A model generated the notes under the pieces. The model ran no database searches. It was not told the DNA's origin and saw only the letters and a program-made list of their open reading frames with translations. Of a stretch of 64,000 nt of DNA, positions 1 through 32,264 are shown piece by piece (positions within the stretch are counted from its first letter, which is position 1; the number at the start of each line of letters is the position of its first letter). Source of the DNA: Opitutales bacterium (GTDB taxonomy: Bacteria; Verrucomicrobiota; Verrucomicrobiia; Opitutales; T3Sed10-336); assembly GCA_007130045.1 (NCBI GenBank), contig SLTG01000088.1, forward strand, positions 24,647-88,646, in the 5' to 3' direction. The translations under genes were made by a program, and so were the position numbers.

Positions 1-3000
1 CTGGGCGGAGTCGGGATGGCGGGCTGCAGGCGTCCGGAATCGCACATCCTTCCGTACGCGCAACAGCCGGAGCGGATCATTCCCGGACGACCCCTCTATT
101 ATGCCACTTCAATGCCTCTGCGCGGTGCGGCGGTTCCGCTGCTGGTCGAAACGCATCAGGCACGCCCGACGAAGATCGAGGGAAACCCGACCTACGGCCC
201 GAACGGCGGAAAGTCGGATCTGCCAACCCAGGCCTCCGTCCTCAATCTCTACGATCCCGACCGAGGGCGGCGCCACGAACGCGGGGATTCGCCGCTCTCC
301 GGCGATGAGCTCGCCGCTCTGCTTGCCGAGGTGGGGGAGAGGTACGCCGGCAACGGGGGTGCGGGACTTGCGTTTCTCGCCGAAACCTCGAGCTCCCCGA
401 CCCGCCGCGCCCTCGTCTCCGAGCTGAAGGAGCGCTTTCCGGAGGCAATCTGGTCCGAATACGAGCCGGTGGACGAGTCTCTCGCGGAAAAGGCGGCGAC
501 CCGTCTCCTGGGCGAGCCGGCCCGTCCCTACTATCATCCGGGAAGGGCGTCGCGTATCCTGGCGCTGGATTCGGATTTCCTCCAGGAGGGCGACGGACAC
601 ATCTATTATTCGCTTTCATTCGCAAACGGACGCCGCGTCGAGAATCCCGGCGATCCGATGAACCGCCTTTACGCCGTCGAGAGCACTTACTCGGTGACCG
701 GCGGCATGGCCGACCACCGCCTGCGACTGGCGACCTCGAAGGTTCCGGCGTTCACTTGCCGCCTGGCCGCCGGCATCCTGTCGGAGCTCGGCGAGGAGTC
801 CGGCCTGGTTTCGGCACTTGAATCCGCATCGAACGGTCTGGACGTCGATGACGCCTGGATTGACGCCTGTGCGAAAGATCTTGTCGAGAACGGTTCGGAA
901 TCCCTCGTGGTCGCCGGGACTCATCTCCCCGAGGAAATTCAGGCCCTCGTTCTCTTCCTGAACCAGATCCTGGGCGCCGTCGGCACGACCGTCGAGTTTC
1001 TGGCAGTGGACGAGAAACAGGGGCGGCCGATCGGAGACCTGGCCGAAGCGATCCGCGCGGGCGACGTTCAGACGCTTTTCGTGCTGGGCGGAAATCCGGC
1101 CTTTAACGCTCCGGCGGATCTGGATTGGAGGGAACTCCAGGACAGTGTGGACGAAGTGATCCGGTACGGGTACTACCGCGACGAGACTTCGGAGGGCGCC
1201 GACGCGTTTATCAACGCTTCACATTATCTGGAATCGTGGGGCGACGCCCGTGCCCCTGACGGGTCGGTGCTGCCGGTGCAGCCGATGATCCTCCCGCTTT
1301 TTCAGAGCGTCACCGAACTCGAGCTCCTCGCGAGGATACTCGGCAAGGAGAACACGGAGCCGTACGACCTGGTTTATGAGACGGTGACCGGAATGAAACC
1401 GGACGACGGCGCGGAGAGGGTGTTCCGCCGTTTTCTTCACGACGGTGTGCTTGCGGACAGCGCGTATTCCGTGGCAAACGGGGAGATCTTCGCGGACGAC
1501 GTCGGGGAGCTGATCGCCGGAGCGGGGATTTCCGTCTCGAGCCTTTCGGTTGATAATCTCGAGGTTCGTCTGGTTCGTGACGCGCGGACGGACGATGGCC
1601 GGTTCGCCAACAACGGCTGGCTGCAGGAATGTCCCGACCCGATCACGAAACTCGCCTGGGACAACGCGATCATGATCAGTCCGCGTCTGGGACGGGAGCT
1701 CGACATTATTCCCGGGGTTCCGGCAATGGGAATCGTGCGACGCAACCCGAATCGGATCCGTTTGGGACGCCAGGTCGCCCCGATTGCCGAGATCGAGCTC
1801 AACGGGCGCAGGATCAAAGGCCCCGTTCACGTTCAGCCGGGACTTGCCGACTATTCGGTGATCGTGCCGGTCGGGTACGGAAGAGAATTCGAAGGCAGAA
1901 TCTGCAAGGGAGTCGGGTTTAACGCGTATCCGCTGAAATCGACCGGGCGGTCTTTCCACGCAACCGGTGTTTCGATCATGATTACCGGCGAGACCCCCAT
2001 GCAGCTCGCCAACGTCCAGGAGCACTGGTCGATGGAGGGCCGGGCGATAATTCGCGAGGCGAACAAGGAATACTACGATGAGAACCCGGACTTCGCCGCG
2101 CGGATGGGAATGGAGTCCCACGCGCCGCCGAACCTCGGGCCCGATCCGCAGGTCCGCGCAATGCCCCTCCACGAGCGCAGCCGGGCGACGCCGCGCGGGT
2201 ACTCGCTCTACGAGCATCCCGAGTTCACCGGAATCCACCAGTGGGGCATGACGATCGACATGAACACCTGCATCGGCTGCAACGCCTGTGTTGTGGCTTG
2301 TCAGAGCGAGAACAATATTCCGATCGTCGGGAAGGACCAGGTGTTGCGCGGGCGCGAGATGCACTGGATTCGGATCGACCGGTATTTTTCGAGCGGCGAA
2401 ACCCGCGACAACGAGGTGCCGGACGATCCCCAGGTTTCGCTACAGCCGATGCTCTGCCAGCACTGCGAATTGGCGCCGTGCGAAACGGTTTGCCCTGTCA
2501 ATGCGACCGTTCACGACGACGAGGGACTCAATGTGATGGCGTACAACCGGTGCATCGGCACCCGCTACTGCGCCAACAACTGTCCCTACAAGGTTCGCCG
2601 ATTCAATTTCTTCGACTGGAACGAGCGGCGGATCGGCAAATTTTATCACGGCCCGTTGGGTCCGAAAGGGATGGACGAACTGCACAAGATGCAGAAGAAC
2701 CCGGATGTTACCGTGCGGATGCGGGGAGTGATGGAGAAATGCACCTTCTGCACGCAGCGAATCGAGGCCGCCAAAATCGAACAAAAGGTGAAAGCCGGTG
2801 CCACATCCGACGTGGAGGTTCCCGACGGGACGATCCAGACAGCCTGCCAGCAGGCCTGCCCGACCGACGCGATCGTGTTCGGAAACATCGCCGACCCGGA
2901 AAGCGAAGTTTCGAAGATGAAGGAACGCGACCGGGATTATTCGGTTCTCGGCTATTTGAACACGCGTCCGCGTGTCACATACCTGGCGAAGCTGCGCAAT

Positions 3001-3093
3001 CCGAATCCCGAGATGCCGGATTTCGGCGCGCGACCGTTGAGCGCCGCGGAGTATTATTCCCGGAACTATCCGAACGGGGGAGCTGAAGAATGA
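1..3093 (+). CDS. actB: Alternative complex III subunit ActB (molybdopterin-oxidoreductase-like domain fused to a 4Fe-4S ferredoxin domain); 5' end probably outside the window
   Basis: 1025-aa ORF (track 16..3093). The frame stays open back to nt 1. The C-terminal half carries the Cys clusters [51 protein letters not shown] and CTFCTQR...CPTDAI. It is followed by actC-F homologues. Confidence 0.85.
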
Positions 3094-4517
3094 TATCTCT
3101 CGACGATACGAAATCGGTCAACGAAAGCCTGATCAAAGAGGCGAAACCGGCGACGTTGCCACGGCGGAAGCTGGTGGAAAACGACCGGAGTTTCGATTGG
3201 ATCACCGAAAAGGTTTGCGGGATCGTCGAGGAAAAGACGCCCACCTGGTGGTGGGTCTGTTTCTTCATTTCCGGTTTCGTTTCCCTGTTCACCGTTGCCG
3301 GAACAATCTATCTGATTTCGACCGGGGTCGGAGTCTGGGGCCTCAACAATCCGGTCAACTGGGGCTGGGCGATCGTCAATTTCGTTTTTTGGATCGGCAT
3401 CGGTCACGCGGGAACCCTGATTTCGGCCATTCTCTGCCTGCTTAAACAGAACTGGCGAACCTCGATCAATCGCGCGGCGGAGGCTATGACGATCTTCGCG
3501 GTCGTCTGCGCGGGCATCTTTCCGCTCATTCACGTCGGTCGCGTCTGGTTTGCGTGGTGGCTTTTCCCGATCCCCAACGCCAACGTGATCTGGCCGCAGT
3601 TCCGGAGCCCATTGCTGTGGGACGTTTTTGCTGTTTCCACGTACGGAACCGTCTCGCTGCTCTTCTGGTACGTTGGGATGATTCCCGACCTCGCGACCCT
3701 GCGCGACCGGGCGAAGACCAGATTGAAACAACTGTTCTACGGCTTCTTCGCAATGGGGTGGCGCGGGTCGAATCGCCATTGGAGCAATTACGAGATGGCC
3801 TACCTGCTGCTGGCGGGGTTGGCGACGCCGCTCGTGCTTTCGGTGCACACCATCGTTTCATTCGACTTTGCCGTTTCGTTGATTCCCGGCTGGCACACGA
3901 CGATCTTCCCGCCGTATTTCGTGGCGGGCGCCATTTTCTCCGGCTTCGGGATGGTGCTGACGCTGATGCTGCCGTTGCGGTCCATCTACGGGCTGCACGA
4001 TCTGATCACGCAGTACCACATCGACTGTATGTGCAAGATCACTCTGGCCACAGGCAGCATGGTGGGATACGCCTATGCGATCGAGTTCTTTATCGCCTGG
4101 TACGGTGCGAACGATTTCGAGAGCTTCGCCTTTATCAATCGAGCTTTCGGGCCCTACGCATGGGCGTACTGGATCATGATCACGTGTAACGTCATTTCGC
4201 CCCAGCTCTTCTGGTTCCGGAAGGTCAGGGAGAATCCGGCGTTCGTGTGGATCGTCTGTATCTTTGTGAATATCGGCATGTGGTTCGAACGGTTCGTCAT
4301 CGTGGTGACGTCGCTTTCACGCGACTTCCTGCCCACAAGCTGGGGTTACTATTCGCCGACCCTAACGGACATTATGACCTACGTGGGGACATTCGGTATC
4401 TTCACATTCCTGTTCCTGTTATTCCTGCGATTTCTGCCGCTCATGGCGATGGCGGAAATCAAGGCGGTTACGCCGCAAGCCAATCCGCACCATAACTCGG
4501 AAGGAGGGAGTCACTGA
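3090..4517 (+). CDS. actC: Alternative complex III subunit ActC (NrfD/PsrC-like polytopic quinol-interacting membrane protein)
   Basis: 475-aa highly hydrophobic ORF with multiple TM helices. ATGA overlap with actB. Position is as in act operons. Confidence 0.85.
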
Positions 4518-4519
4518 CC

Positions 4520-5059
4520 ATGAGCGACGAAGGAAAAACCTACGGGATGATGGCGAGCTTCAAAACGACCGGCGCGGTGATGCAGGCCGCCGAGAAAGTG
4601 CGCGACGAAGGATTCAAGCACTGGGACGTGATCAGTCCGTTCCCTATCCACGGAATGGACGGCGCGATGGGGATCACTCGATCCAAAGTCCCCATCTTCA
4701 CTCTGATCGGCGGCGCGACCGGTTTCTTCGGAGGGAACCTGATGATCTGGTACATGAACGCCTACGACTACGCGATCCCCGTCGGAGGCAAGCCGATGTT
4801 CAGCCCGATGTACGCGTTTCCGGTTTCATACGAGCTGACCATCCTGCTTGCCGCGTTCGGAGCGATCATCGGCATGCTCCTGATGAACCGCCTTCCCATG
4901 CACTACCATCCCGCAATGAAGCACGATGCGGTGGACCGTGCGTCCAACGACCGGTTTTTTATCGTCATCGAATCCTCGGACCCGAGGTTTGACGAAAAGA
5001 CGACGACTGCCCTGCTCGAAAGGATAGGCGGGAGCGACGTGACGAAAATCGAAGACTGA
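4520..5059 (+). CDS. actD: Alternative complex III subunit ActD (DUF3341-type)
   Basis: 179 aa with a soluble N-terminus followed by two TM helices (FTLIGGATGFFGG..., ELTILLAAFGAIIGMLL). There is a 2-nt gap after actC. Confidence 0.8.
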   Translation: MSDEGKTYGMMASFKTTGAVMQAAEKVRDEGFKHWDVISPFPIHGMDGAMGITRSKVPIFTLIGGATGFFGGNLMIWYMNAYDYAIPVGGKPMFSPMYAFPVSYELTILLAAFGAIIGMLLMNRLPMHYHPAMKHDAVDRASNDRFFIVIESSDPRFDEKTTTALLERIGGSDVTKIED

Positions 5060-5061
5060 AC

Positions 5062-5691
5062 ATGCGTATTTTCTTCGCCATATTTGCCTTTTCCCTGCTG
5101 GCCCTGCTTTCGATTCTGGGGTTCCGGGGAGCGACCTCCGACCGGCCGCCGATCGAGATCTTTCCCGATATGGTTCGCCAGTCGAAGTACAAGGCGCAAT
5201 CCCATAGCGAGTTTTTTGAAGACGGCCGGACCGACCGGCCCGTTCCGCCTGGAACGGTGCATCGCCAGTACGACAACCCGCAAGAGAGCGAACGGCTGGA
5301 TGACGATCACTTCAATACCGGAAGGGTGAACGGCGACTACGCCGAGGGATTCCCGATGGTTGTGACCCGCGAGACGATGGAGCGCGGACGTGACCGGTAC
5401 AGGATCTTCTGCGGAAGCTGTCACGGCGGGATCGGCGACGGGCAGGGAATCACGTTCGAATATGGAATGGTCACGGTACCGGATTTTCACGCGGAACGCT
5501 TTTACGATATGGCCGAAGGGGAGATTTTTGAAACGATCACCGAGGGCAGGGGATTGATGGGGTCTTACAAGGATAAACTCAGTGTCGAGGACCGCTGGGC
5601 CGTGATCGCTTACGTTCGCGCCCTTCAACGTGCCCGCGTGGGAACCGAAGCCGACGTGCCGGAGGCCGAAAGAGAGAGGCTTGGACTATGA
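5062..5691 (+). CDS. actE: Alternative complex III subunit ActE (membrane-anchored monoheme cytochrome c)
   Basis: 209 aa with an N-terminal hydrophobic anchor, a single CGSCHG heme-c motif and a downstream Met-containing segment (GRGLMGSY). Confidence 0.8.
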   Translation: MRIFFAIFAFSLLALLSILGFRGATSDRPPIEIFPDMVRQSKYKAQSHSEFFEDGRTDRPVPPGTVHRQYDNPQESERLDDDHFNTGRVNGDYAEGFPMVVTRETMERGRDRYRIFCGSCHGGIGDGQGITFEYGMVTVPDFHAERFYDMAEGEIFETITEGRGLMGSYKDKLSVEDRWAVIAYVRALQRARVGTEADVPEAERERLGL

Positions 5692-6953
5692 GCAATGCAA
5701 AATCAGCGGGAGCGACCGGCCCGGCCGGCGGAGCGGCGGCGAATGCGTGGATGTTTCGTGCGATGATCGTCGGCATCGTGGCTCTGGTTCTCACACTTGT
5801 CGGCCTTTTCACCGGAGATCCTGTCCGGGTCGGGCTCGGCACGCTGATCTCCGTGGTGTTCTGGCTTTCCATCGGCCTAGGAATGTGGTTTCTGATCATG
5901 TTGTTTTACTTGTTCGACGCGGGATGGGGAACCGTGGTGCGGCGTCCGATGGAGCACGCGACCGCAACGTTTCCTTGGATCGGGGCGGTGTTTTTCGTCC
6001 TGCTTTTCCACTCCCTCATGGCGGACGCCGAGGAGGGTGTCTGGAAATGGATGAATCCGGAAAATCCCGTCGTGATCGCCGGGGAACTCGCGACGGTCCA
6101 AGACGATGTTCTCTATCACCATAAGAGCGCATTCCTGAACAATGCTTTTTTCTTCGTCCGTTCGCTCATTTATTTCGGCATCTTTATCGGTATCGCTTCG
6201 ATCCTGCGCAATGCCTCGTTCAGGCAGGACAGTGACGGCGACGGTGCCTGGACCACGGTCTGCCGCAAATGGTCCGCGGGCGGGGTGATTCTCGGCGCGC
6301 TTGCCGTGACGTTCGCTTCACTGGACTGGATCATGACCCTGGAGTTTCACTGGTTTTCCACGATGTTCGGAGTCTGGTTCTTCTCGTCCGCGATGAGGGC
6401 CGCGTTGTCGGGAACGGTGATTGTCTGTTTGATCCTGGTTTACACCGGCGTGTTCAGGGGCGTGTTCAAGCAGGCGCATCTTTACGAGTTGGGACGGCTG
6501 ATGTTCGCGTTTACCGTCTTTTGGGCCTACATTGCCTTTTCACAGTACTTCCTGATCTTGAACGCGAACATTCCGGAGGTCACATACTGGTACGTCAACC
6601 GCGAACACGAGTACTGGTGGTGGGTCGGACTGGCTCTCCTGTTCGGTCACTTCTTCGTTCCCTTTATCTACCTTCTTTTTTACAGGAACAAGGTTCTCCC
6701 GGGACGAATGCTCTTTATTTCAGTATGGATTCTCGCGTTCCATTTGTTGGATCTTTACTTCAACATCCTTCCCTCCAAGCACGCGGAAACCGGACTGCCG
6801 TATTACAACTTCTCCGTCACCTTCTGGGATGTCACCGCGTTCGCCGGTGTTGGCGGGATTTGCGTCTGGGCCTTCATGAAAAGCTACGTCGGTCAAAAGG
6901 CCATTCCGGTGCGTGATCCACGCATCCTGGAATCCCTCAGCCATCATGAATAA
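5688..6953 (+). CDS. actF: Alternative complex III subunit ActF (second NrfD-like membrane subunit)
   Basis: 421-aa polytopic membrane ORF with a 4-nt overlap with actE. Its order in the operon fits actF. Confidence 0.8.
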   Translation: MSNAKSAGATGPAGGAAANAWMFRAMIVGIVALVLTLVGLFTGDPVRVGLGTLISVVFWLSIGLGMWFLIMLFYLFDAGWGTVVRRPMEHATATFPWIGAVFFVLLFHSLMADAEEGVWKWMNPENPVVIAGELATVQDDVLYHHKSAFLNNAFFFVRSLIYFGIFIGIASILRNASFRQDSDGDGAWTTVCRKWSAGGVILGALAVTFASLDWIMTLEFHWFSTMFGVWFFSSAMRAALSGTVIVCLILVYTGVFRGVFKQAHLYELGRLMFAFTVFWAYIAFSQYFLILNANIPEVTYWYVNREHEYWWWVGLALLFGHFFVPFIYLLFYRNKVLPGRMLFISVWILAFHLLDLYFNILPSKHAETGLPYYNFSVTFWDVTAFAGVGGICVWAFMKSYVGQKAIPVRDPRILESLSHHE

Positions 6954-7353
6954 CAAAGAACCCTCATTGCGAAACACTGTTTTATCGGCCGTCGCTGTCA
7001 TCGCCGGACTGGTCATCATGGTGATCGTCGCCGCGATTGTGTATCTTCCGGATCGTGCGGACACTGTCGCGCGGCCGGGGATGACCCCTGCGGAACGCAG
7101 GGAGCTGCTTCAGAAGAAGACGAGCCGCGAGGAAGAGGAACTCGGTCATTACGGATGGATCGACGAGGAGGCGGGACGCCTGCGCCTGCCGATCGATTTG
7201 GCCATGGACCTTGCCGTTTCGGAAATCGACCGGGAGGAATCGATCATCGTTCGCGAATTTGAAGAACCTGAAGAGGAGGAAGAGGATGACGGGCAGGACG
7301 AGTCCGACGAAGACGCGGAAGAGGAACCGGATAACAACGAGTTAGAGGGCTGA
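6946..7353 (+). CDS. Small single-pass membrane protein with a strongly acidic C-terminal tail (possible ACIII/oxidase accessory subunit)
   Basis: The ATG at 6946 overlaps the actF stop by 8 nt. One TM helix (VLSAVAVIAGLVIMVIVAAIVYL). The tail reads EFEEPEEEEEDDGQDESDEDAEEEPDNNELEG. No recognised family. Confidence 0.55.
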   Translation: MNNKEPSLRNTVLSAVAVIAGLVIMVIVAAIVYLPDRADTVARPGMTPAERRELLQKKTSREEEELGHYGWIDEEAGRLRLPIDLAMDLAVSEIDREESIIVREFEEPEEEEEDDGQDESDEDAEEEPDNNELEG

Positions 7354-7356
7354 TTG

Positions 7357-8844
7357 ATGAGCGATTCTTCTTCACACCCGGATTCAAGCACCAATCGCGG
7401 CGGCGCTACCGGCCTCCAACCGTTCGGCTTGCGGGCAATCGACACATCGATGCGCGTGCCGGCCGTCGTCTTTGGGGCAATGTCGGTTCTCTGGTTGTTT
7501 GTCGCCACGCTGTTTGCGCTGATTACTTCCTTCAAGCTGCACACACCTGGCTTTCTCGGTCAATGGGAATTGCTGACGTTCGGACGGGTTCAGCCCGCCT
7601 ATATGACGATGTTTCTTTACGGCTGGGCGACCAATGCGGGTTTTGGGGTTGCATTCTGGATCATGGCCCGCCTTTCCAGGAACACCCTTCAGGCCGGCGT
7701 CACACTTTATACCGCCGCGGCGTTTTGGAACGTCGGGGTCCTGGTTGCGATCTTCGGCATTCTGATCGGCCACTTGAATCCGCACAAATGGCTGGAGATG
7801 CCGGGTTATGCCGCCCCGCTTCTGTTCGTGGCGTTTGCGCTTATCGCGGTGTGGGCGGTGCTCACGTTCAGATTCCGCCGGTCCGATTATTCGTATGTGT
7901 CTCAGTGGTACCTCCTGGCGGCCCTTTTTTGGTTTCCCGCCATCTTCGGAATCGCCTGCCTGATGCTCGTTTACGCTCCCGCCCGCGGCGTCGTCCAGTC
8001 GGTCGTCGGTATGTGGTATGCCCACAACCTCTACGCGCTCTGGCTGACGCCGATCGGACTTGCGGCGGCGTACTATTTCATTCCCAAAATCCTGGGCAAG
8101 CCGGTACACAGTTACTATTTCGCCGCTATCGCGTTCTGGACCTACCTTGTTTTCGCCAGTTGGGCGGGAACGCAGCACCTCGCCGGCGGGCCGGTCCCGG
8201 CATGGATCATTTCCTCCGGGATTGTCGGGAGCCTTCTCACGCTCTTTCCGGTCGTCATCATCGGTATCAATCACCACGTCTCAATGGCGGGAAACTTCGG
8301 AAAGCTTCGCACGAGTCCCACCCTGCGGTTCGTGTATTTCGGGGCGGTCGCGTTCACATCCGTCAGCATTCTGACCGCGTTCACCGCCTTCAGAAGCGTC
8401 CGGGAGGTCGTCCAGTTCACGTATTTCATGGACGGCCAGATGCAGTGGGGAATCTATGCCTGGTTCACGATGGCGATGTTCGGCGCCCTTTATTACATCA
8501 TGCCGCGGGTGCTCAATCGCGAGTGGCCTTCGGCCATGCTGATCAGGCTGCATTTCTGGACGTGCGCGTCCGGAATCGTTTTGTACGTTTTGGCCATGTG
8601 TATCGGCGGATGGATACAGGGGATTCAGATCAACAACCCAGGCGCGTATCCGGATTTCGTCGATGTCGTCGGAAACACCATGCCATGGTTGGTCGCCGGA
8701 AGTCTGGCGGGGATTCTTCTTCTGCTTGGCCACGCCGCGTTCGCTATCCATTTCTTCTGGATTCTCCTTCGCCCGGAGATCCCGGATGAGAGCCGATCGA
8801 AGCTCTTTAAGGAGCCGAAACACATGAAGGTTGCAGTGAAATGA
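7357..8844 (+). CDS. Heme-copper oxidase superfamily, cbb3 CcoN-like subunit I with a degenerate heme/CuB ligand set
   Basis: About 495-aa 12-TM protein. Long ungapped similarity to CcoN blocks (FGR..P, WYAHN, YYFIPK..KPV.SY, WAG..HL, RF......F, GALYY..PRV..RE, HFW....G..LY). Four of the six canonical His ligand positions read Tyr or Gln (see findings). Confidence 0.8.
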   Translation: MSDSSSHPDSSTNRGGATGLQPFGLRAIDTSMRVPAVVFGAMSVLWLFVATLFALITSFKLHTPGFLGQWELLTFGRVQPAYMTMFLYGWATNAGFGVAFWIMARLSRNTLQAGVTLYTAAAFWNVGVLVAIFGILIGHLNPHKWLEMPGYAAPLLFVAFALIAVWAVLTFRFRRSDYSYVSQWYLLAALFWFPAIFGIACLMLVYAPARGVVQSVVGMWYAHNLYALWLTPIGLAAAYYFIPKILGKPVHSYYFAAIAFWTYLVFASWAGTQHLAGGPVPAWIISSGIVGSLLTLFPVVIIGINHHVSMAGNFGKLRTSPTLRFVYFGAVAFTSVSILTAFTAFRSVREVVQFTYFMDGQMQWGIYAWFTMAMFGALYYIMPRVLNREWPSAMLIRLHFWTCASGIVLYVLAMCIGGWIQGIQINNPGAYPDFVDVVGNTMPWLVAGSLAGILLLLGHAAFAIHFFWILLRPEIPDESRSKLFKEPKHMKVAVK

Positions 8845-9494
8845 ACAAACTGTCGGTCATCATTACAGGCATACTCGTTACCATTGCCTTTTCCTGGGCG
8901 GGACTCGTGCTTACGAGCCATGTTCAGTTGGGCGCGCTCGAGCACCACGTTGACGAACTGTCGGGTGATTCGTTTCCTCCGCCGCGGGCCGGGATCGCCC
9001 GGAGAGGCAAGAAGACCTACCAGGAACTCGGTTGCGTCGCCTGCCACACCCAGCAGGTCCGGCGGCCGCGTGACGAGGAGACCTGGCGCCTGCCTTACGG
9101 GTACGCGGGCGATATCGAGCGCGGATGGGGCGAACGCCAGTCGGTGGCCCGCGATTACATTCGCGACGAAGTTGTATTGCTGGGAACCCGGAGGGTGGGT
9201 CCGGACCTCATGACGGTTGGCGGCAGGGAGGACACCCGCGAGTGGCATCATCGCCATTTGTACGACCCGCGTATCAACACACCCGGCTCGACCATGCCGT
9301 CCTATTCTTTTCTGTATAAAACCCGGGCGGTGGACGACGATCCGTCTCCGCGAGCGCTCGACCTTCCCGAGGGATTTGGAGCGCCGGCAGGGTATGAAGT
9401 TCTTCCGACACCCCGCGCCGATGCGCTTGTCCAATATCTTTTGAGTTTGCGAATGGATTACGAATTGCCGGAGGTTCCCGCGGAAAATGAGTGA
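8841..9494 (+). CDS. ccoO: cbb3-type oxidase subunit II (CcoO)-like monoheme cytochrome c
   Basis: 217 aa with an N-terminal TM anchor and motifs CVACHTQQVR, GTRRVGPDL..VGGR, WHHRHLYDPR and STMPSY. ATGA overlap with the upstream gene. Confidence 0.8.
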   Translation: MNKLSVIITGILVTIAFSWAGLVLTSHVQLGALEHHVDELSGDSFPPPRAGIARRGKKTYQELGCVACHTQQVRRPRDEETWRLPYGYAGDIERGWGERQSVARDYIRDEVVLLGTRRVGPDLMTVGGREDTREWHHRHLYDPRINTPGSTMPSYSFLYKTRAVDDDPSPRALDLPEGFGAPAGYEVLPTPRADALVQYLLSLRMDYELPEVPAENE

Positions 9495-10149
9495 TAAAAA
9501 GAATCAAGAACCGGACGACCGGGAGTTTTGCCTGGAGCAGGAAACGACTTCGGATGAGAGCATCCAGGAGGTCCATGATTCGTTGATGCACCAGAAGGAA
9601 TCGACGCGTGCCGGGTTTCCCATCCTGCCCATCATGATGGTCTTATTCTTCAGTCTGCTGATGCTGGTGGGAGGAATCTACATGGCGGATTACGGAGTCC
9701 GGTTCAGTGCTTTGGCTTTCGATGAAACCCGCGACCCGGCAACTCGTGAGCCGGAGGAGCCTTCAAAGGTGGATATGGTAGCCATGGGCCAAGGGGTTTA
9801 CCGGACCTGCGCCGCCTGCCATGGACCCGAAGGCCAGGGGACTCCTGGAGTGTTTCCGCCCCTCGTGGACACTGATTGGGTGCTCGGATCCAAGGATCGG
9901 CTCATTCGCATTGTCCTTAACGGTCTCACCGGGCCGATCGAAGTCAGGGGTGAGACGTACAACATGCCCATGGGTGGTCTAGGCGGCGCTTTGAACGATC
10001 GGGAGGTCGCAGCGGTTTTGACCTACATTCGACAGGCATGGGGTAACGAGGCTTCCGAGGTCACTCTCGAGGAGGTTTCGGATGTCCGGAGCGAAGTGGG
10101 AACCCGCGGACCCTGGACCGCCGAAGAACTCGAGCAATTCGTCGATTGA
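9487..10149 (+). CDS. Membrane-anchored class I monoheme cytochrome c (occupies the CcoP position)
   Basis: 220 aa with one TM helix (FPILPIMMVLFFSLLMLVGGIYM), a single CAACHGPEGQG motif and the later MPMGG. 8-nt overlap with the ccoO-like gene. Confidence 0.75.
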   Translation: MSDKKNQEPDDREFCLEQETTSDESIQEVHDSLMHQKESTRAGFPILPIMMVLFFSLLMLVGGIYMADYGVRFSALAFDETRDPATREPEEPSKVDMVAMGQGVYRTCAACHGPEGQGTPGVFPPLVDTDWVLGSKDRLIRIVLNGLTGPIEVRGETYNMPMGGLGGALNDREVAAVLTYIRQAWGNEASEVTLEEVSDVRSEVGTRGPWTAEELEQFVD

Positions 10150-21353: not shown

Positions 21354-22883
21354 TCAGAACCGTCGTCCCAAGGCGATGTTGGCCTGCAATCCGCGCGGGA
21401 CGGACGTTCCGTCGATTGACGTCGTATCCAGGGTGGAGGCAACGTCGAGGTGGAGGGCGCGGAAAAACGTGAGTCCTCCCGCGACGTAGGTGAGCTTTTC
21501 GCCTGCGAGGTTTGTTTTCATGCCGACGCGCGGGCTGGGAACCCAACCGCGGCGCGGTTCATAGCTTCCGAGAATCGCCGCCCATTTGTAGTTGTCTCCC
21601 GTAGTATCCTTCGCGCTGTTGAGGTCGAGGGCGGCGGTGGCCATCCATCGACGGCTCGGCGTGTAAACGGCTCCTTCGAGCGTGAGTTGCCGCTCTATCG
21701 TCCAGCGGCTCCCGTTGCGTCGCGCCTGAGGGTTGGCGGTGAAGAACGCCGAGTCGCTTGTATCCGGATAGTCGAACGACGGCTCGTTGATATTTCGAAG
21801 CGTCGCCCCGAGCGAATACCACCGTTCTACCCACGTCGCGCCGATGTCGAGTCCGAGGCCGCTCGAGGTCTCCTGGTTTTCTTCGAATTCGTCCCGTGCC
21901 GTGTCTTCAAACTCGTCGTCGTTCAACAGGACGCCTCCGCGCACCAGGGTTGTTCGAAAGATATTGAATGACGTGCCCGCGTGAAGGCGTCCCTCGCCGC
22001 GGCTCCAGACCTGACGCGAGTACCCGGCCCCGATTCGTCCGACATAGCCGCCCTGGACGGCGACCCCTGCGTCGTCGGTTGGCTCGATCGGGCGCTCGGT
22101 ACCATCCGTGAGCACGACGACGGGTGTGTCGTCGATGATCTCAAAGCGGTCCACTTCGTTCGCCGCTACCCCTTGAAGACCGATGTCGAAAGCATCGTTG
22201 ACCGATTCAACGGCCGCACGGGCCTCGATGATTCCGTCCGCATAAAGGCCGACGACCCCGCGGAGCAGGTTGGAACGGAACGCGATCGGGACCAGGGGAG
22301 CGGAAGCGCTGCCGGTGAGCTTCACATAGGCGTCGTCGGTCAGGTCGCGGACGAGATCGTTCGCCTGGTTCTCGAAGAGGTTGAGGTCGTCGAGGAATGC
22401 CTGGATCTCCGGATCGGAGGGACGGGGACCCGAGAAGTCCTCGGCCTGCTCCTCCAGGCGATCGAATGCATCCAAGATGTCGTCGATCCTTTGGTCGAAG
22501 TCCTTGGCCTCGCCGATCTCCACTCCGGCGCCTATATCAAAGAGGGTGCCGAACCGAAACCCGCGGTCGCTGAGCGAGGGATGCGCGACGTTGACAATCG
22601 GCGGGAGTCCGCGTTGCGAGGCGCCGAATGGCGCGACGCTCGGCATGTTCATCGTTGACATCCGAAGGCCCGCGTGCGCCGGATCTTCAACGGGAACACC
22701 GTCAACCTCCTCGGCAGCGCCGTCCTCCAACGCGGGGGATTCAGGGGCGTCCGCGGTGGCCGGCTCCGATTCCGGTTCGAGATCCGTCGGGAGGCTTTCA
22801 ACATCGCCGAATCCATTGGATACGCCGAACAGGAGAACGGCAAGTAAAGCGATGACAACCGGCGGGTTCGAACGTTCGTACAT
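21354..22883 (-). CDS. Putative outer-membrane beta-barrel protein with an acidic Pro-rich N-terminal linker
   Basis: The internal start MYERSNPPVVIALLAVLLFGVSNGFG gives a signal peptide. The C-terminal half has alternating amphipathic strands, and the protein ends ...ANIALGRRF (terminal Phe typical of OMPs). Confidence 0.6.
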   Translation of the reverse strand: MYERSNPPVVIALLAVLLFGVSNGFGDVESLPTDLEPESEPATADAPESPALEDGAAEEVDGVPVEDPAHAGLRMSTMNMPSVAPFGASQRGLPPIVNVAHPSLSDRGFRFGTLFDIGAGVEIGEAKDFDQRIDDILDAFDRLEEQAEDFSGPRPSDPEIQAFLDDLNLFENQANDLVRDLTDDAYVKLTGSASAPLVPIAFRSNLLRGVVGLYADGIIEARAAVESVNDAFDIGLQGVAANEVDRFEIIDDTPVVVLTDGTERPIEPTDDAGVAVQGGYVGRIGAGYSRQVWSRGEGRLHAGTSFNIFRTTLVRGGVLLNDDEFEDTARDEFEENQETSSGLGLDIGATWVERWYSLGATLRNINEPSFDYPDTSDSAFFTANPQARRNGSRWTIERQLTLEGAVYTPSRRWMATAALDLNSAKDTTGDNYKWAAILGSYEPRRGWVPSPRVGMKTNLAGEKLTYVAGGLTFFRALHLDVASTLDTTSIDGTSVPRGLQANIALGRRF

Positions 22884-23090
22884 TGACGAAGAAGAAAGTT
22901 CGTCGGGATGCGATGCGCAAGCCGATTTTTCGTGAGCCCGGGGAAGCCTGCACCACGACCGGGAGGAATCGTACCGCAGAAGAAGAGGAATGTATTCCAG
23001 TTCCAACCACCCGGTGTCGCCGCACGACGCCACCTCGTCGTCTCCAGGCCGGGACGAGTCTCCGCGGTGCCCGTCCGGTAGCCTCCGGCA

Positions 23091-29773: not shown

Positions 29774-30334
29774 ATGAATGAATCCAGAATTGCAGAGTCC
29801 AATCTGGTCGGATCTCTTTTGCTGGCGCATCCGGGATTGGACGATCCCAACTTCAAGAAATCCGTCATCCTGCTTTCCGCTCATTCACCTGAAGACGGTG
29901 CGATGGGGGTGATCCTGAACCGTCCGATGGCGAAGACGCTGGGCGAATACGACGGTTCCCTCGTTTACAGCGGGCTGGCCGACGTGCCCGTTTACGAGGG
30001 AGGACCCGTCCAGGCGGACCAGATGATTTTGTCGGCCTGGTCATGGTCGGACGAGAAGAAGGTGTTCAAGCTGTTTTTCGGCATCGACGTGGAGCGGGCG
30101 AAAGACTTGCGCGAGAATCAGGGAATGGAGATCCGCGCCTTTCTAGGCTATACAGGTTGGGGGAAGCGCCAACTCGAAGGAGAGTTGGCCGCGAATACCT
30201 GGGTGTTGGCCAATATTAACGGTGATGTCTTGGGCGGGGAGGACGGCAGCAAGCTCTGGCGGTCGATTATGAGCGAACTCAGTCTCGATTTCAAGCTAAT
30301 GGCCGACTTCCCCGACGATCCGAGCTTGAACTGA
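29774..30334 (+). CDS. YqgE/AlgH family protein (UPF0301)
   Basis: 186 aa with LLLAHPGLDDPNFKKSVILL..H...GAMGVILNRP and GGPV...GY.GW..GQLE motifs. Confidence 0.85.
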   Translation: MNESRIAESNLVGSLLLAHPGLDDPNFKKSVILLSAHSPEDGAMGVILNRPMAKTLGEYDGSLVYSGLADVPVYEGGPVQADQMILSAWSWSDEKKVFKLFFGIDVERAKDLRENQGMEIRAFLGYTGWGKRQLEGELAANTWVLANINGDVLGGEDGSKLWRSIMSELSLDFKLMADFPDDPSLN

Positions 30335-31378
30335 CTTCGGTTGCCGCTGCGCCGGGGCCCGGAGGCGCAGGTGTTTCCAAACGTGCCGGGCCTTCCGTTC
30401 AAGGACTTCCCTGCAATGGCGAATTTCGCCTTCCCGGGCCGAGCGGTTCGCGTCGGCAATCTGGGAAAGGTCGTCGATGTTGTACAGGAAAATGTTGTCG
30501 ACTTGTGCAATTTCCGGATCGAAGTCGCGCGGCACGGCCAGGTCGATAAGGAAGATGGGTTGTAAGGGGCGGTGATGCATGATCTCCTCGGCCTCTTTCC
30601 GCGTGATTACAGGGGCGCTCGCCGCCGTCGATCCGATTACGATGTCGAAATCGCCGAGCGCCCTCTTGAACTGTTCGAACCGAAGGACGGTTCCTTCCAG
30701 TTTGCCGGCCAGTTCGCCCGCGCGTTCGAAGGTCCGATTGCTGAGGGTGACGCTTCTCGCGCCCCGGTTCTTGAGGTTGACGATGGTCCGCTCGGCGATC
30801 TCGCCGGCTCCGAGCACGAGGATTCTGCAGCGTTCGAGGTCTCCGAAAATTTTCCCGGCAAGATCGACCGCCACCGAGCCGACACTGACCTGGCCGCGTC
30901 CGATTCCCGTGTGAGTCCGCGTCCACTTGGCGGCCTGAAAGCTCTTCTGGAAGAGCCGGTTGAGAACCGGGCCCATGCAGGCGTGCCGCCGGGCTTCTTC
31001 GTAGGACTCCTTGACCTGGCCCAGAATCTCGGCCTCCCCGACAACGAGGGAATCAACGCCGCTGGCAACCTCGAACAGATGTGAAACGGCATCTTCGTTT
31101 TCCTTCCACGCACTATACTTCAGGAGCGTTTCACGGTCGAAACGGTGAAAATCCGAAACAAAGTCCAACACCTTTTCCCGGACCTCCGGCTCGGGAGCGA
31201 CGGCGTAGATCTCGACGCGGTTGCAGGTATTGAGCACCGCGAACTCGTTGAGTCCCCGAATATTCCGCAGCCCTTCATACAACGTGGCGGTTCGTTCGGG
31301 AGACACGGCGATTTTCTCGCGAATTTCAACCGGAGCGGTCCGGTGGCTGGCGCCGAGCATGTGGAGCGGACCCGTCAT
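30296..31378 (-). CDS. hemA: Glutamyl-tRNA reductase
   Basis: The internal start MTGPLHMLGASHRTAPVEIREK gives 360 aa, with motifs LNTCNRVEIY and VLGAGEIAE (NADPH site). The upstream Ser/Arg-rich extension in the track overlaps the preceding gene. Confidence 0.9.
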   Translation of the reverse strand: MTGPLHMLGASHRTAPVEIREKIAVSPERTATLYEGLRNIRGLNEFAVLNTCNRVEIYAVAPEPEVREKVLDFVSDFHRFDRETLLKYSAWKENEDAVSHLFEVASGVDSLVVGEAEILGQVKESYEEARRHACMGPVLNRLFQKSFQAAKWTRTHTGIGRGQVSVGSVAVDLAGKIFGDLERCRILVLGAGEIAERTIVNLKNRGARSVTLSNRTFERAGELAGKLEGTVLRFEQFKRALGDFDIVIGSTAASAPVITRKEAEEIMHHRPLQPIFLIDLAVPRDFDPEIAQVDNIFLYNIDDLSQIADANRSAREGEIRHCREVLERKARHVWKHLRLRAPAQRQPKSVQARIVGEVGH

Positions 31379-31379
31379 T

Positions 31380-32264
31380 TCATTCGTCGAGGACACCTTG
31401 GAACGCGCGGAATATGGTTGATGCGGAAGCGGTCTGTTCGACCATAGGCCGGCTTCCGGCGGAGACCGTTGGAATCGAAAGGAGCGCGACGAAGAAGAGC
31501 GCGATGCACACCCACGCCAGGGGACGGGAGATGAGGGTCTTGCGCACACGGAGGACAAGCACCGAAACGTATGCGAACCAGATCGCCGTTGTAATCAACA
31601 GCTTGGCGGGATTGACCGCGTCCGGGTCCCGCAGCCAGTACTGCGCGCCGATCAGGATGGAACCGCTCAGGATGACGATCCCGAGAACCAGCAGCCTGAA
31701 ATTCATATGTTCCAGTTGATAGAGTGAGGGCAGGAAACCAAAAACGCCTTCGAGTTTCTTTCGCTTCAGACTGTGGTTCTGCAGCAGGTACATTAACGAA
31801 GTCAGTGCGAGAACGCCGAACGCGCCGTAACTGAAGATGGCCATCGACGCGTGCAGTTCGATCCAGACGTTGTCGCCCAGGAACGATTCACGGCGCACGG
31901 CGTCCCATTCGGGGACGATCAGGGAGAGGATACCCAGCACGGCCGCCAGGCCGGCCGAGAAGAATCCGAGGAGGCTCATGCGGAACGCGGGCCCGACCGC
32001 CATATAGATGACGATGAGCGACCAGACCACGAACTGGATAATCTCGAAAGGATTGCCGAGCGGGCAGCTCCGCGTTTCGAGACCGCGCATGTAGAGCCCG
32101 GTTGTCTGAAGAATAAACCCGGAGGCGACGATCGTGAAGAGCAGCAGCCGGGAATGCTGCCTGGATCGGAGAACGCCGAAGAGGGCGAAAACGAAGGCGA
32201 CGGCGTAAACCGCGTTGCCCGCCGCGATCCAGGCCCGATCGTCCATTTGCAGAAAGAGTGTCAT
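31380..32264 (-). CDS. Cytochrome c assembly protein family (CcsA/HemX-like membrane protein)
   Basis: 294-aa 8-TM protein that stops 1 nt before the hemA start. The Trp-containing segment WIELHASMAIFSYGAFGV fits the CcsA/ResC family pattern. Confidence 0.65.
   Translation of the reverse strand: MTLFLQMDDRAWIAAGNAVYAVAFVFALFGVLRSRQHSRLLLFTIVASGFILQTTGLYMRGLETRSCPLGNPFEIIQFVVWSLIVIYMAVGPAFRMSLLGFFSAGLAAVLGILSLIVPEWDAVRRESFLGDNVWIELHASMAIFSYGAFGVLALTSLMYLLQNHSLKRKKLEGVFGFLPSLYQLEHMNFRLLVLGIVILSGSILIGAQYWLRDPDAVNPAKLLITTAIWFAYVSVLVLRVRKTLISRPLAWVCIALFFVALLSIPTVSAGSRPMVEQTASASTIFRAFQGVLDE

Follow-up and report, generated by a model that had tools for sequence, protein, structure and literature searches.

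What does an oxidase subunit do once it has lost the residues that should hold its hemes and copper? The question is raised by a gene in the window, by which we mean the whole 64,000-nucleotide stretch of Opitutales DNA analysed here. The gene lies within an ACIII operon and encodes a protein related to CcoN, the catalytic subunit of cbb3 oxidases. The genes of the operon are as follows.

1-3093, + strand: actB, a fused molybdopterin-like and 4Fe-4S ACIII subunit, its 5' end cut by the window start (Fer4 domains, QrcC/QrcB-like matches)
3090-4517, + strand: actC, an NrfD-type quinol-interacting membrane subunit (PF03916 NrfD, E 2.9e-23)
4520-5059, + strand: actD (PF11821 ActD, E 8.8e-63)
5062-5691, + strand: actE, a monoheme cytochrome c (PF13442, E 6e-12)
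5688-6953, + strand: a membrane subunit of 421 aa in the actF position, conserved there in all related operons
6946-7353, + strand: a small protein with one TM helix and an acidic tail, occupying the 'ActG' position (from its translation; a gene stands at the same position in L001-L011)
7357-8844, + strand: a ligand-less CcoN-like protein, or pseudo-oxidase subunit I (profile, PDB and MAFFT alignments, AF2 model)
8841-9494, + strand: a CcoO-like monoheme cytochrome c subunit (PF02433 FixO, E 6.5e-22; alignment to 8SMR_F and 3MK7_B)
9487-10149, + strand: a monoheme class I cytochrome c anchored in the membrane, occupying the CcoP position (PF00034, PF13442; one TM helix, CAACH)

Upstream of ccoN, actB, C, D, E and F are co-linear, run in one direction and overlap or abut, which meets our criterion for an ACIII operon. 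Locus L001 carries actA just upstream of a full-length actB (2450-5737, 1095 aa). ActB has a QrcB-like match and lacks the molybdopterin signature, while the protein in the actF position has no Pfam match. Behind the preceding gene, whose stop is at 7353, come a GAGGG motif and the ccoN start codon (ATG, 7357). The junction of ccoN with ccoO is an ATGA overlap at 8841-8844, and ccoO shares 8 nt with the cytochrome c gene (9487-9494). These junctions bear out a preliminary description of the locus, in which ccoN was held to be full length and translationally coupled within the operon. That description also held that the CcoO-like partner keeps its heme-binding residues, and in alignment with 8SMR_F and 3MK7_B both the CxxCH (GCVACH) and the axial Met (STMPSY) are indeed in place; behind the heme motif lies an insertion some 11 residues long that is specific to the lineage. 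The same two features are kept in eight of nine aligned operons, the ninth (L093) being a truncated call from which the motif region is missing. The cytochrome c of the third gene finds its best PDB matches in a NirK-fusion cytochrome c domain and Thermus c552. No terminal oxidase or other electron acceptor was found within the 64-kb window. In L094 A-type oxidase genes follow directly downstream of the operon, and in L097 they do so at a distance of about 6 kb.

The open reading frame at 7357-8844 encodes 495 aa without internal stops. It matches Pfam COX1 (PF00115) with an E of 1.3e-48 over profile positions 3-435 of 436, and scores 161.5 bits against the NCBIfam ccoN model TIGR00780, below the curated equivalog cut-off of 583.15. 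With phmmer it finds P. stutzeri CcoN (PDB 3MK7 chain A) at an E of 2.6e-36 (query 38-468, chain 16-456), and the two can be aligned from end to end at roughly 25-30% identity. The structure prediction that the preliminary description had called for yielded an AF2 model of the CcoN fold with a pLDDT of 89.9, which Foldseek superimposes on 3MK7_A with TM-scores of 0.87/0.92 and an rmsd of 1.7 A. The protein is thus a full-length CcoN homologue, and as far as a model can establish it, the fold has been retained with confidence. It has in common with the P. stutzeri enzyme its 12 helices, a CcoO with heme c as partner, and the gene order ccoN, ccoO, then a cytochrome c.

It is in the ligand columns that the resemblance fails. 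The positions below come from the phmmer alignment to 3MK7_A, with the P. stutzeri residue given first and the window codon, with its first nucleotide, in brackets; every codon was read directly from the DNA.

H60 corresponds to Y82 (TAT 7600)
H207 corresponds to H223, kept (CAC 8023)
Y251, the helix VII Tyr cross-linked to a CuB His, corresponds to A267 (GCC 8155)
H257 corresponds to Q273 (CAG 8173)
H258 corresponds to H274, kept (CAC 8176)
H345 corresponds to Q361 (CAG 8437)
H347 corresponds to Q363 (CAG 8443)

The six invariant His comprise two axial heme b ligands, one heme b3 ligand and three CuB ligands, and just two of them (H223 and H274) are left in the window protein, along with no active-site Tyr. 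Identical columns were obtained from a MAFFT alignment with 120 homologues and from hmmalign to a profile of 107 canonical relatives, and because three independent alignments concur we regard the ligand loss as confirmed. The substitutions are those read in the preliminary description, including that of the cross-linked Tyr, and the profile and 3MK7 checks proposed there place His in two of the six columns, as it had predicted. No other His lies within four residues of a lost ligand position in the window CcoN, and at each site the replacement codon is one nucleotide change from a His codon. Of the P. stutzeri residues that we take to line the cbb3 proton channel (T215, Y223, S240 and Y317), the first two are kept as T231 and Y239 and the others are changed to A256 and F333. 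The active-site Glu at P. stutzeri E323 is not retained either. Compared with the P. stutzeri protein, then, the window CcoN lacks four of six His, the cross-linked Tyr, an adjoining ccoS, several presumed proton-channel residues, and further residues that never vary among canonical relatives. That oxidase function has been lost is well supported, with the caveat that activity and heme and copper content are inferred and no assay data exist; that the protein holds neither hemes nor copper is likewise an inference.

Departures from the canonical active site have precedents of a milder kind. In the HCO variants gNOR, NOD, sNOR and eNOR another residue has taken the place of the active-site Tyr or of a single metal ligand (Murali et al. 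2024, PMC11214002), and the same paper presents gNOR as the first HCO in which one active-site His is replaced. Those enzymes keep both hemes and a modified, conserved metal site, whereas in the window protein the heme ligands are gone and their replacements are not conserved.

How recently the ligands were lost can be judged from canonical relatives. An act-cco 'superoperon' is known to encode canonical ACIII-linked cbb3 oxidases in Opitutales and in verrucomicrobial methanotrophs (PMC8498564, PMC6688271). By synteny and by the identity of its Act proteins to those of locus L008, the window operon is orthologous to these, with the same layout of actABCDEF, small gene, ccoN, ccoO and cytochrome c. 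Window actC is 93-95% identical to its counterparts in L006 and L008; for L008 itself, ActC identity is 93% and ActB identity 76-77%. However, canonical loci have the complete ligand pattern (HHYHHHH, as in L008) and a ccoS immediately 5' of ccoN, and the window locus has neither. Some of them, L008 for example, also carry a CcoI-like P-type ATPase within 10 kb, which the window locus does not. The small ORF 5' of canonical ccoN is PF03597 FixS (23 of 28 members match, best E 4e-8). An HMM of this ccoS family matched in every canonical locus for which upstream DNA was available and in none of nine ligand-less lineages, with only a degenerate remnant in L097. In canonical relatives ccoS is the gene that follows the small one in the 'ActG' position; in the window that small gene abuts ccoN and leaves no space for it. 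The absence of CcoS/FixS and CcoI genes refers to the locus only, the rest of the genome lying outside the search.

A relative-rate test, in which window and L008 proteins were compared by their identities to 52 canonical outgroup loci, gave differences of -0.4, -0.4 and +0.5 points for ActB, ActC and ActF. Window CcoN was 12.2 points and window CcoO 9.7 points lower than the L008 proteins, in 52 of 52 comparisons. Among the genes compared with L008, acceleration is thus confined to CcoN and CcoO. The loss of ligands in the window lineage also appears, by comparison with a sister operon that keeps them all, to be recent.

The window protein is not an isolated case. We define the ligand-less CcoN-like family by a CcoN fold, at most two or three of the six His, a position between ACIII genes and ccoO-cytochrome c, and the lack of an intact ccoS; the window meets all of these criteria. 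A survey of the best 150 cluster representatives at 50% identity included 135 full-length proteins, of which 128 keep no more than two of the six His (none in 71, one in 43, two in 14) and only four are canonical. All ten ligand-less lineages examined belong to Verrucomicrobiota and have the same actABCDEF-ccoN-ccoO-cytochrome c operon, without an intact ccoS in any. The phenomenon is phylum-wide in Verrucomicrobiota, although the taxonomy of the distant members rests on a few source names and six contigs. When genome contigs were scanned with the ligand-less alignment, more than 595 loci matched, and the best 80 of them were almost all canonical Opitutales. Judged by ActB and ActC identity, the window clade arose independently of the other ligand-less clades, which makes the 'family' polyphyletic; with synteny added, the ligands appear to have been lost independently at least three or four times, the window being one such case. 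A neighbour-joining tree rooted on P. stutzeri placed the fast-evolving ligand-less sequences basal to canonical Opitutales, a placement we attribute to long-branch attraction because a regain of six His and the Tyr is implausible. We found no earlier description of ligand-less CcoN, or of a large family of 'empty' CcoN in Verrucomicrobia, in the full-text literature, of which only the open-access subset was covered. The loss of ligands and ccoS, the retained fold, the conservation of the operon, the recurrence in Verrucomicrobiota and the purifying selection described below are matters of observation, and it is in what the protein now does that explanations diverge.

The substitutes might themselves be ligands. 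In other proteins Tyr and Gln can serve as ligands of heme iron or copper, and a new centre held by Tyr82, Gln273, Gln361, Gln363, His223 and His274 could serve other chemistry or simple electron transfer. In keeping with this idea, H223 and Q363 are common to the three closest relatives, column 347 of the ligand-less group most often has Gln (34%), heme-pocket positions in that group are mostly small (Ala, Gly, Pro) instead of bulky, and some members, P0300 (pattern HNAQRYH) among them, keep both heme-b His. We nevertheless consider a new redox centre unlikely. The preliminary description had suggested looking for the same substitutions in orthologues beside act operons; ligand loss does recur there, with the same class of changes in relatives at 69-70% identity, but the exact substitutes are not shared. 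In the three closest relatives column 60 reads Y/T/Y, column 257 Q/H/H, column 258 H/H/Y and column 345 Q/Q/L, and because the Tyr and Gln are not conserved even at this distance they are improbable alternative ligands. Across the family no residue exceeds about 50% in any ligand column; R57, W203, H337 and R437, invariant in canonical relatives, have been lost as well, and ccoS, a cofactor-insertion gene, has been deleted. A search for polar residues whose conservation is peculiar to the ligand-less group found none. Just two columns set the group apart, S240 (now Ala) and A352 (now Gly), and neither is plausible as a ligand. Since the pocket residues are small, an unliganded or differently liganded cofactor, a lipid or a quinone in the cavity cannot be excluded.

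Alternatively, the emptied CcoN could be independent of redox chemistry and act as an H+ or Na+ path, or as a conformational coupling element, for ACIII. The energy-coupling mechanism of ACIII is unresolved (PMC8498564). A 12-helix membrane protein so tightly linked to ACIII, with conserved charged or polar intramembrane residues (R77, R105, R174, Q183, Q214 and H399), would be a reasonable candidate. However, in the ligand-less group the presumed proton-channel residues and the cross-linked Tyr are degraded (S240 to Ala in 85%, Y317 to Phe, Y251 to Gly or Ala), and the Glu at position 323 is missing from the window. Moreover, every polar residue conserved in the group is conserved in canonical enzymes too, so there is no signature of a new pathway, and we regard this explanation as distinctly improbable.

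A third possibility is that we are watching a pseudogene form, the oxidase of an anaerobic lineage having been inactivated so recently that its reading frame still awaits decay. That each replacement codon lies one nucleotide from a His codon, that the substitutes differ among the three relatives and that relatives are soda-lake sediment MAGs (L012) all fit such a scenario, as does the comparatively young loss implied by the 79-81% of 151 family-invariant columns that the window clade still keeps. Yet the much older ligand-less lineages, which keep only about 60% of those columns, are still full length and in the same operon, and translational coupling in the window is intact. Among the window, L005 and L006, three species-level lineages without a frameshift or stop, ccoN has a dN/dS (NG86) of 0.11-0.17, against 0.09-0.12 for ActF, 0.08-0.11 for CcoO and 0.08-0.11 for ProC. 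With dS saturated at 1.1-2.5 these values are approximate, but they indicate that window ccoN is under purifying selection similar to that on neighbouring ACIII genes. Incipient decay is therefore very unlikely. The preliminary view of a pseudo-oxidase that is retained instead of decaying has held up, on the strength of these ratios, the acceleration of CcoN and CcoO alone, the loss of ccoS, and a large and diverse family in the same operon position. An artefact of sequencing, assembly or frame, which had been doubted from the start and for which we found no supporting point, is refuted, because the exact 495-aa product recurs on nine contigs from at least four independent assemblies (ERZ27301261, ERZ27301262 and ERZ27301263 in ENA, GCA_007125965.1 in NCBI), relatives have changes of the same class, and the substitutions span 850 nt of one uninterrupted frame.

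We therefore lean towards a different explanation, which we hold to be probable without being secure: window ccoN is a cofactor-less descendant of an ACIII-linked cbb3 catalytic subunit that now serves as a scaffold, holding c-type cytochromes on ACIII. Its recent ancestor would have been an operon of ACIII, CcoS, CcoN, CcoO and cytochrome c encoding a normal oxidase. The lineage would then have given up the chemistry of O2 reduction, and with it four of six His, the cross-linked Tyr, several putative proton-channel residues and the CcoS gene, while the 12-helix protein stayed under purifying selection alongside a heme-binding CcoO and an anchored cytochrome c. Its present role would most likely be structural, that of a membrane scaffold that assembles CcoO and the cytochrome c and docks them on ACIII, and the module as a whole may be a membrane-bound c-type cytochrome relay from menaquinol through ACIII to some other acceptor. 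Both the scaffold and relay role and the identity of the acceptor are inferred, there being no biochemical, transcript or proteome data for any member. An interface between ACIII and the pseudo-CcoN, or a supercomplex of the two, is likewise inferred and not demonstrated, and to call the protein 'repurposed' is an inference for as long as its new role has not been shown.

Subunits of this kind exist elsewhere in respiratory complexes. The molybdopterin-like ActB1/QrcB of ACIII and Qrc and the peptidase-like core proteins of cytochrome bc1 are pseudo-enzymes, and like them the window protein has a catalytic fold that is structurally conserved without its cofactor or active site; unlike theirs, its membership of a complex has not been shown. 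The ActB of the window operon, with its QrcB-like match and no molybdopterin signature, is itself an example. To our knowledge there is no reported precedent for the fold of HCO subunit I as a cofactor-less structural subunit. As to the broader proposition, that a working cbb3 oxidase gave rise to such a subunit on at least three or four separate occasions in Verrucomicrobiota and that CcoN, CcoO and cytochrome c together form a membrane-anchored relay attached to ACIII, we consider the chances to be about even.

The six His of subunit I have been treated as invariant, and a widespread lineage under selection that lacks nearly all of them would demonstrate a use of the fold that is independent of its cofactors. 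For ACIII, whose partners and coupling mechanism are still debated, it would be a natural experiment on the part that the CcoN scaffold plays in assembling CcoO and cytochrome c and in ACIII supercomplexes. The intermediates make up a graded series from enzyme to pseudoenzyme, running from canonical proteins through those with only CuB ligands or only the Tyr, and those with only heme-b ligands, to the window clade and the fully ligand-less forms, an unusually clean trajectory for such a conversion. There is also a practical consequence, as annotations of cbb3 subunit I routinely serve as evidence of microaerobic respiration. Public sources give ligand-less proteins the name 'cbb3-type cytochrome c oxidase subunit I', and estimates of high-affinity O2 respiration in Verrucomicrobiota that rest on marker genes are therefore likely to be inflated. 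If our interpretation is true, a large share of these annotations in verrucomicrobial genomes and metagenomes would be no mark of O2 respiration, and to correct them it would be enough to inspect the ligand columns and look for ccoS.

The CcoN-like protein of the window (495 aa) is encoded within a single, tightly packed operon that spans positions 1-10149 of the forward strand and is followed by proC:

1-3093 (+), actB, its 5' end truncated by the window start
3090-4517 (+), actC (NrfD)
4520-5059 (+), actD
5062-5691 (+), actE (cytochrome c)
5688-6953 (+), membrane protein of 421 aa in the actF position
6946-7353 (+), small single-TM acidic protein in the 'ActG' position
7357-8844 (+), CcoN-like gene
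8841-9494 (+), CcoO-like gene
9487-10149 (+), TM-anchored monoheme cytochrome c

In other assemblies actA lies directly upstream of actB on the same contig. The reading frames abut or overlap (stop at 7353 and ATG at 7357, ATGA at 8841-8844, 8-nt overlap at 9487-9494), which bears out the preliminary description of the CcoN-like gene as intact and coupled on both sides within an alternative complex III (ACIII) operon. The 'ActG'-position protein combines a single N-terminal TM helix with a C-terminal tail that is strongly acidic and rich in Glu/Asp; its gene is the fastest-evolving in the operon (50-61% identity among the three close relatives). Elsewhere in the window, hemA (glutamyl-tRNA reductase; 30296-31558, reverse strand) implies that tetrapyrrole synthesis is kept, consistent with the operon's many c-type cytochromes. 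A 559-aa ORF with a PF13729 TraF_2 match (21354-23033, reverse strand; E 1e-36), among sulfatase, sulfotransferase and GFO-type oxidoreductase genes, has no relation to the CcoN finding.

Pfam COX1 matches the CcoN-like product across the full profile (E 1.3e-48), and the ccoN equivalog model gives it only 161.5 bits against a cut-off of 583. Window residues 38-468 align with residues 16-456 of P. stutzeri CcoN (3MK7 chain A; phmmer against the PDB, E 2.6e-36), which places Y82, H223, A267, Q273, H274, Q361 and Q363 at H60, H207, Y251, H257, H258, H345 and H347, respectively; the roles of the individual P. stutzeri residues follow the published structure. A MAFFT alignment of 120 homologues and a separate profile alignment gave the same ligand columns, so that the claimed substitutions stand in all three alignments, with the exact codons and with four His columns lacking His. 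Every His replacement is one nucleotide off CAY, and no His lies within four residues of any lost ligand position. The CcoO partner was correctly said to retain CxxCH and its Met ligand, since GCVACH and the Met of STMPSY align with the heme ligands of solved CcoO chains. As judged from an AlphaFold2 model (pLDDT 89.9, pTM 0.89; TM-scores 0.87/0.92 and rmsd 1.7 A to 3MK7 chain A), the CcoN fold is intact. On the criteria that define a C-family oxygen reductase, the protein fails for its His ligands, its Tyr and its channel residues as well as for the model cut-off, and we are confident that it is not a heme-copper O2 reductase.

The closest relatives, P0002 (locus L005, 69% identical) and P0003 (L006, 70%), are encoded in the same operon, and its flanking genes are the same as well. 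Written as the residues at the seven positions above, they read THAHHQQ and YHAHYLQ, compared with YHAQHQQ in the window; among these act-operon orthologues the degeneracy recurs, but the same residue pattern does not. The next relative, P0004 of locus L008, is fully canonical (HHYHHHH). L008 shares upstream NIF3 and 4HBT genes with the window, as well as 93% identity in ActC and 76-77% in ActB. It has two small ORFs between the 'ActG'-position gene and ccoN, plus a downstream P-type ATPase, all missing from the window clade. The loss of ligands in the window is therefore young, and arose from a working oxidase.

The first of the two small ORFs is a CcoS/FixS homologue (PF03597 is matched by 23 of 28 family members, best E 4e-8), and without CcoS the hemes b/b3 and CuB do not appear in a cbb3 oxidase. 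With a family HMM, a CcoS-like ORF was found in every canonical locus having upstream DNA and in none of nine ligand-less lineages; locus L097 has only a truncated remnant (9822-10013). The CcoN-like protein of L097 (P0300, 10001-11512; HNAQRYH) keeps both heme-b axial His but none of the heme b3 and CuB ligands. P0303 of the same subgroup (HNSMRWY) keeps H60 as its sole ligand His. The second small ORF of L008 (9778-9993, 71 aa), between ccoS and ccoN, has no Pfam match, and tblastn finds it only in L008 and L009, not in the window clade.

Of the 120 best homologues at the 90%-cluster level, 106 match the canonical pattern in full and 108 have all six His. Two further degenerate groups, of SQAARLH type (P0092, L011) and ANGHYRL/KNGHHHL type, are nested in canonical ones; by ActB and ActC identity many canonical loci are at least as close to the window as L011, so the ligand loss of L011 is independent. 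Among 1.84 billion 50%-cluster representatives, searched exhaustively with phmmer, 1982 match at E<1e-3 and 378 at E<1e-30. The 150 best matches include 135 full-length proteins, of which 71 keep none of the six His, 43 keep one, 14 two, 2 three and 1 four; only 4 are canonical. Misalignment is unlikely, as in 83-92% of ligand-less sequences the four residues on either side of a given ligand column include no other His and mean His content falls from 17.8 to 8.2 per protein. Named sources are Verrucomicrobia, Opitutaceae or Terrimicrobiaceae MAGs and one 'Methylomirabilota' MAG, and six further contexts (L092-L097) again have an actABCDEF, small gene, ccoN-like, ccoO-like and cytochrome c operon. 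On an NJ tree about four state changes suffice; because long branches distort its rooting, we claim only a minimum of three to four independent losses.

Several side observations concern this family. In P0220 (706 aa, ENA contig) a single polypeptide joins a ligand-less CcoN-like part (KHAP-QQ) to a FixO/CcoO domain (PF00115 plus PF02433), indicating that the two parts stay together even without CcoN cofactors. CcoO-like proteins are enlarged in several old ligand-less lineages, at 299-328 aa against about 205-220 aa elsewhere (L092, 11431-12417; L095, 11494-12393; L096, 11479-12408; L097, 11509-12477). The L092 protein owes its extra length to a long Ala/Pro/Lys-rich insertion past CxxCH, where the window CcoO has a smaller insertion of about 11 residues (RDEETWRLPY). 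Other Opitutales CcoN proteins (L029, CcoN at about 4650-6137; L040; L043; P0085, P0113, P0060, P0070) are changed only at the CuB/Tyr site (HHSARHH, HHSSHHH, HHFQHHH) or at the Tyr alone (HHTHHHH, HHNHHHH, HHCHHHH). These variants retain all three heme His and ccoS. They could be intermediates toward ligand loss or enzymes with different active-site chemistry.

Over 80 columns with a conservation of at least 90% among canonical relatives are relaxed in ligand-less proteins. R57, N202, W203, H337 and R437 are among them, as are the Tyr and two proton-channel residues of P. stutzeri cbb3, S240 (Ala in 85%) and Y317 (Phe). The polar residues that remain well conserved (in window numbering R77, R105, N125, E147, R174, Q183, Q214, Y240, N305, Y379 and H399, for example) are all equally conserved in canonical enzymes. 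From sequence comparison alone, what is conserved resembles inherited determinants of the fold and of subunit interfaces. Non-canonical binding of a cofactor keeps an outside chance, and a redox-independent ion or coupling role a slightly slimmer one; no new candidate ligand or channel signature was found among the residues conserved in the ligand-less group.

Ongoing decay is harder still to sustain. Among the three degenerate lineages the dN/dS of ccoN is 0.11-0.17 (NG86), and that of ActF 0.09-0.12, CcoO 0.08-0.11 and ProC 0.08-0.11; saturated dS (1.1-2.5) makes these values rough, yet all are far below 1. With 52 canonical operons as outgroups, the window, L006 and L008 are equidistant in ActB, ActC and ActF (differences of -0.8 to +0.5 identity points). 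CcoN has diverged beyond that of L008 by 12.2 points in the window and 13.5 in L006, and CcoO by 9.7 and 7.7, the window proteins being lower in identity than those of L008 in 52 of 52 comparisons. Of the 151 columns whose conservation among canonical relatives reaches 95% or more, 79-81% are kept in the window clade and 98% in L008. Since only CcoN and CcoO are accelerated, constraint was relaxed or redirected specifically on this pair, not abolished. Low dN/dS and retention in the operon across deep divergences support the earlier proposal of a retained pseudo-oxidase rather than decay. An artefact can be set aside, the identical protein being present on nine contigs (three ENA assemblies and one NCBI MAG), which excludes sequence error as had been argued.

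The comparisons show a maintained protein that has lost the canonical cofactor sites, in an operon that has lost the dedicated maturation gene; both of its c-type cytochrome partners are still heme-competent, and the three stay tied to ACIII across those divergences. We lean toward a role, inferred rather than observed, in which pseudo-CcoN would be a scaffold without cofactors, required for CcoO and cytochrome c to be assembled or anchored on ACIII, the terminal oxidase thereby having been turned into a membrane-bound cytochrome c relay. The cytochrome domain of the third gene most resembles electron-shuttle class I cytochromes (a NirK-tethered domain and Thermus c552). A genuine oxidase as one acceptor of this relay is hinted at by A-type clusters downstream in two ligand-less lineages: about 6 kb away in L097, and immediately in the Terrimicrobiaceae MAG locus L094 (9899-16065), where the operon leads straight into a complete cluster of COX2, COX1, CtaA, CtaB, COX3 and SCO1. 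No oxidase gene lies within the 64-kb window, whose relatives derive from soda-lake sediment MAGs, and in this lineage a periplasmic reductase is equally possible as acceptor.

The window protein descends from, and is likened to, the CcoN of ACIII-linked cbb3 oxidases. Conceptual precedents are cofactor-less pseudo-enzyme subunits such as ActB1/QrcB and, nearest, HCO variants whose active sites are altered; gNOR is described in a 2024 survey as the first HCO in which one active-site His is replaced (PMC11214002). Reviews uniformly take the ACIII-linked cbb3 of Opitutaceae and verrucomicrobial methanotrophs to be oxidases (PMC8498564, PMC6688271). We found no description of a ligand-less CcoN family in the open-access literature, and mention elsewhere is not excluded. 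The original observation is confirmed and its pseudo-oxidase interpretation supported and considerably widened, with real consequences for 'cbb3 oxidase' annotation in Verrucomicrobiota. Public annotation calls every named ligand-less member 'cbb3-type cytochrome c oxidase subunit I' (NCBI, JGI) or 'hypothetical protein', a systematic over-annotation that would lead metagenome surveys to count too many high-affinity oxidases. Ligand-less CcoN also offers a clear experimental handle on the partner complexes of ACIII.
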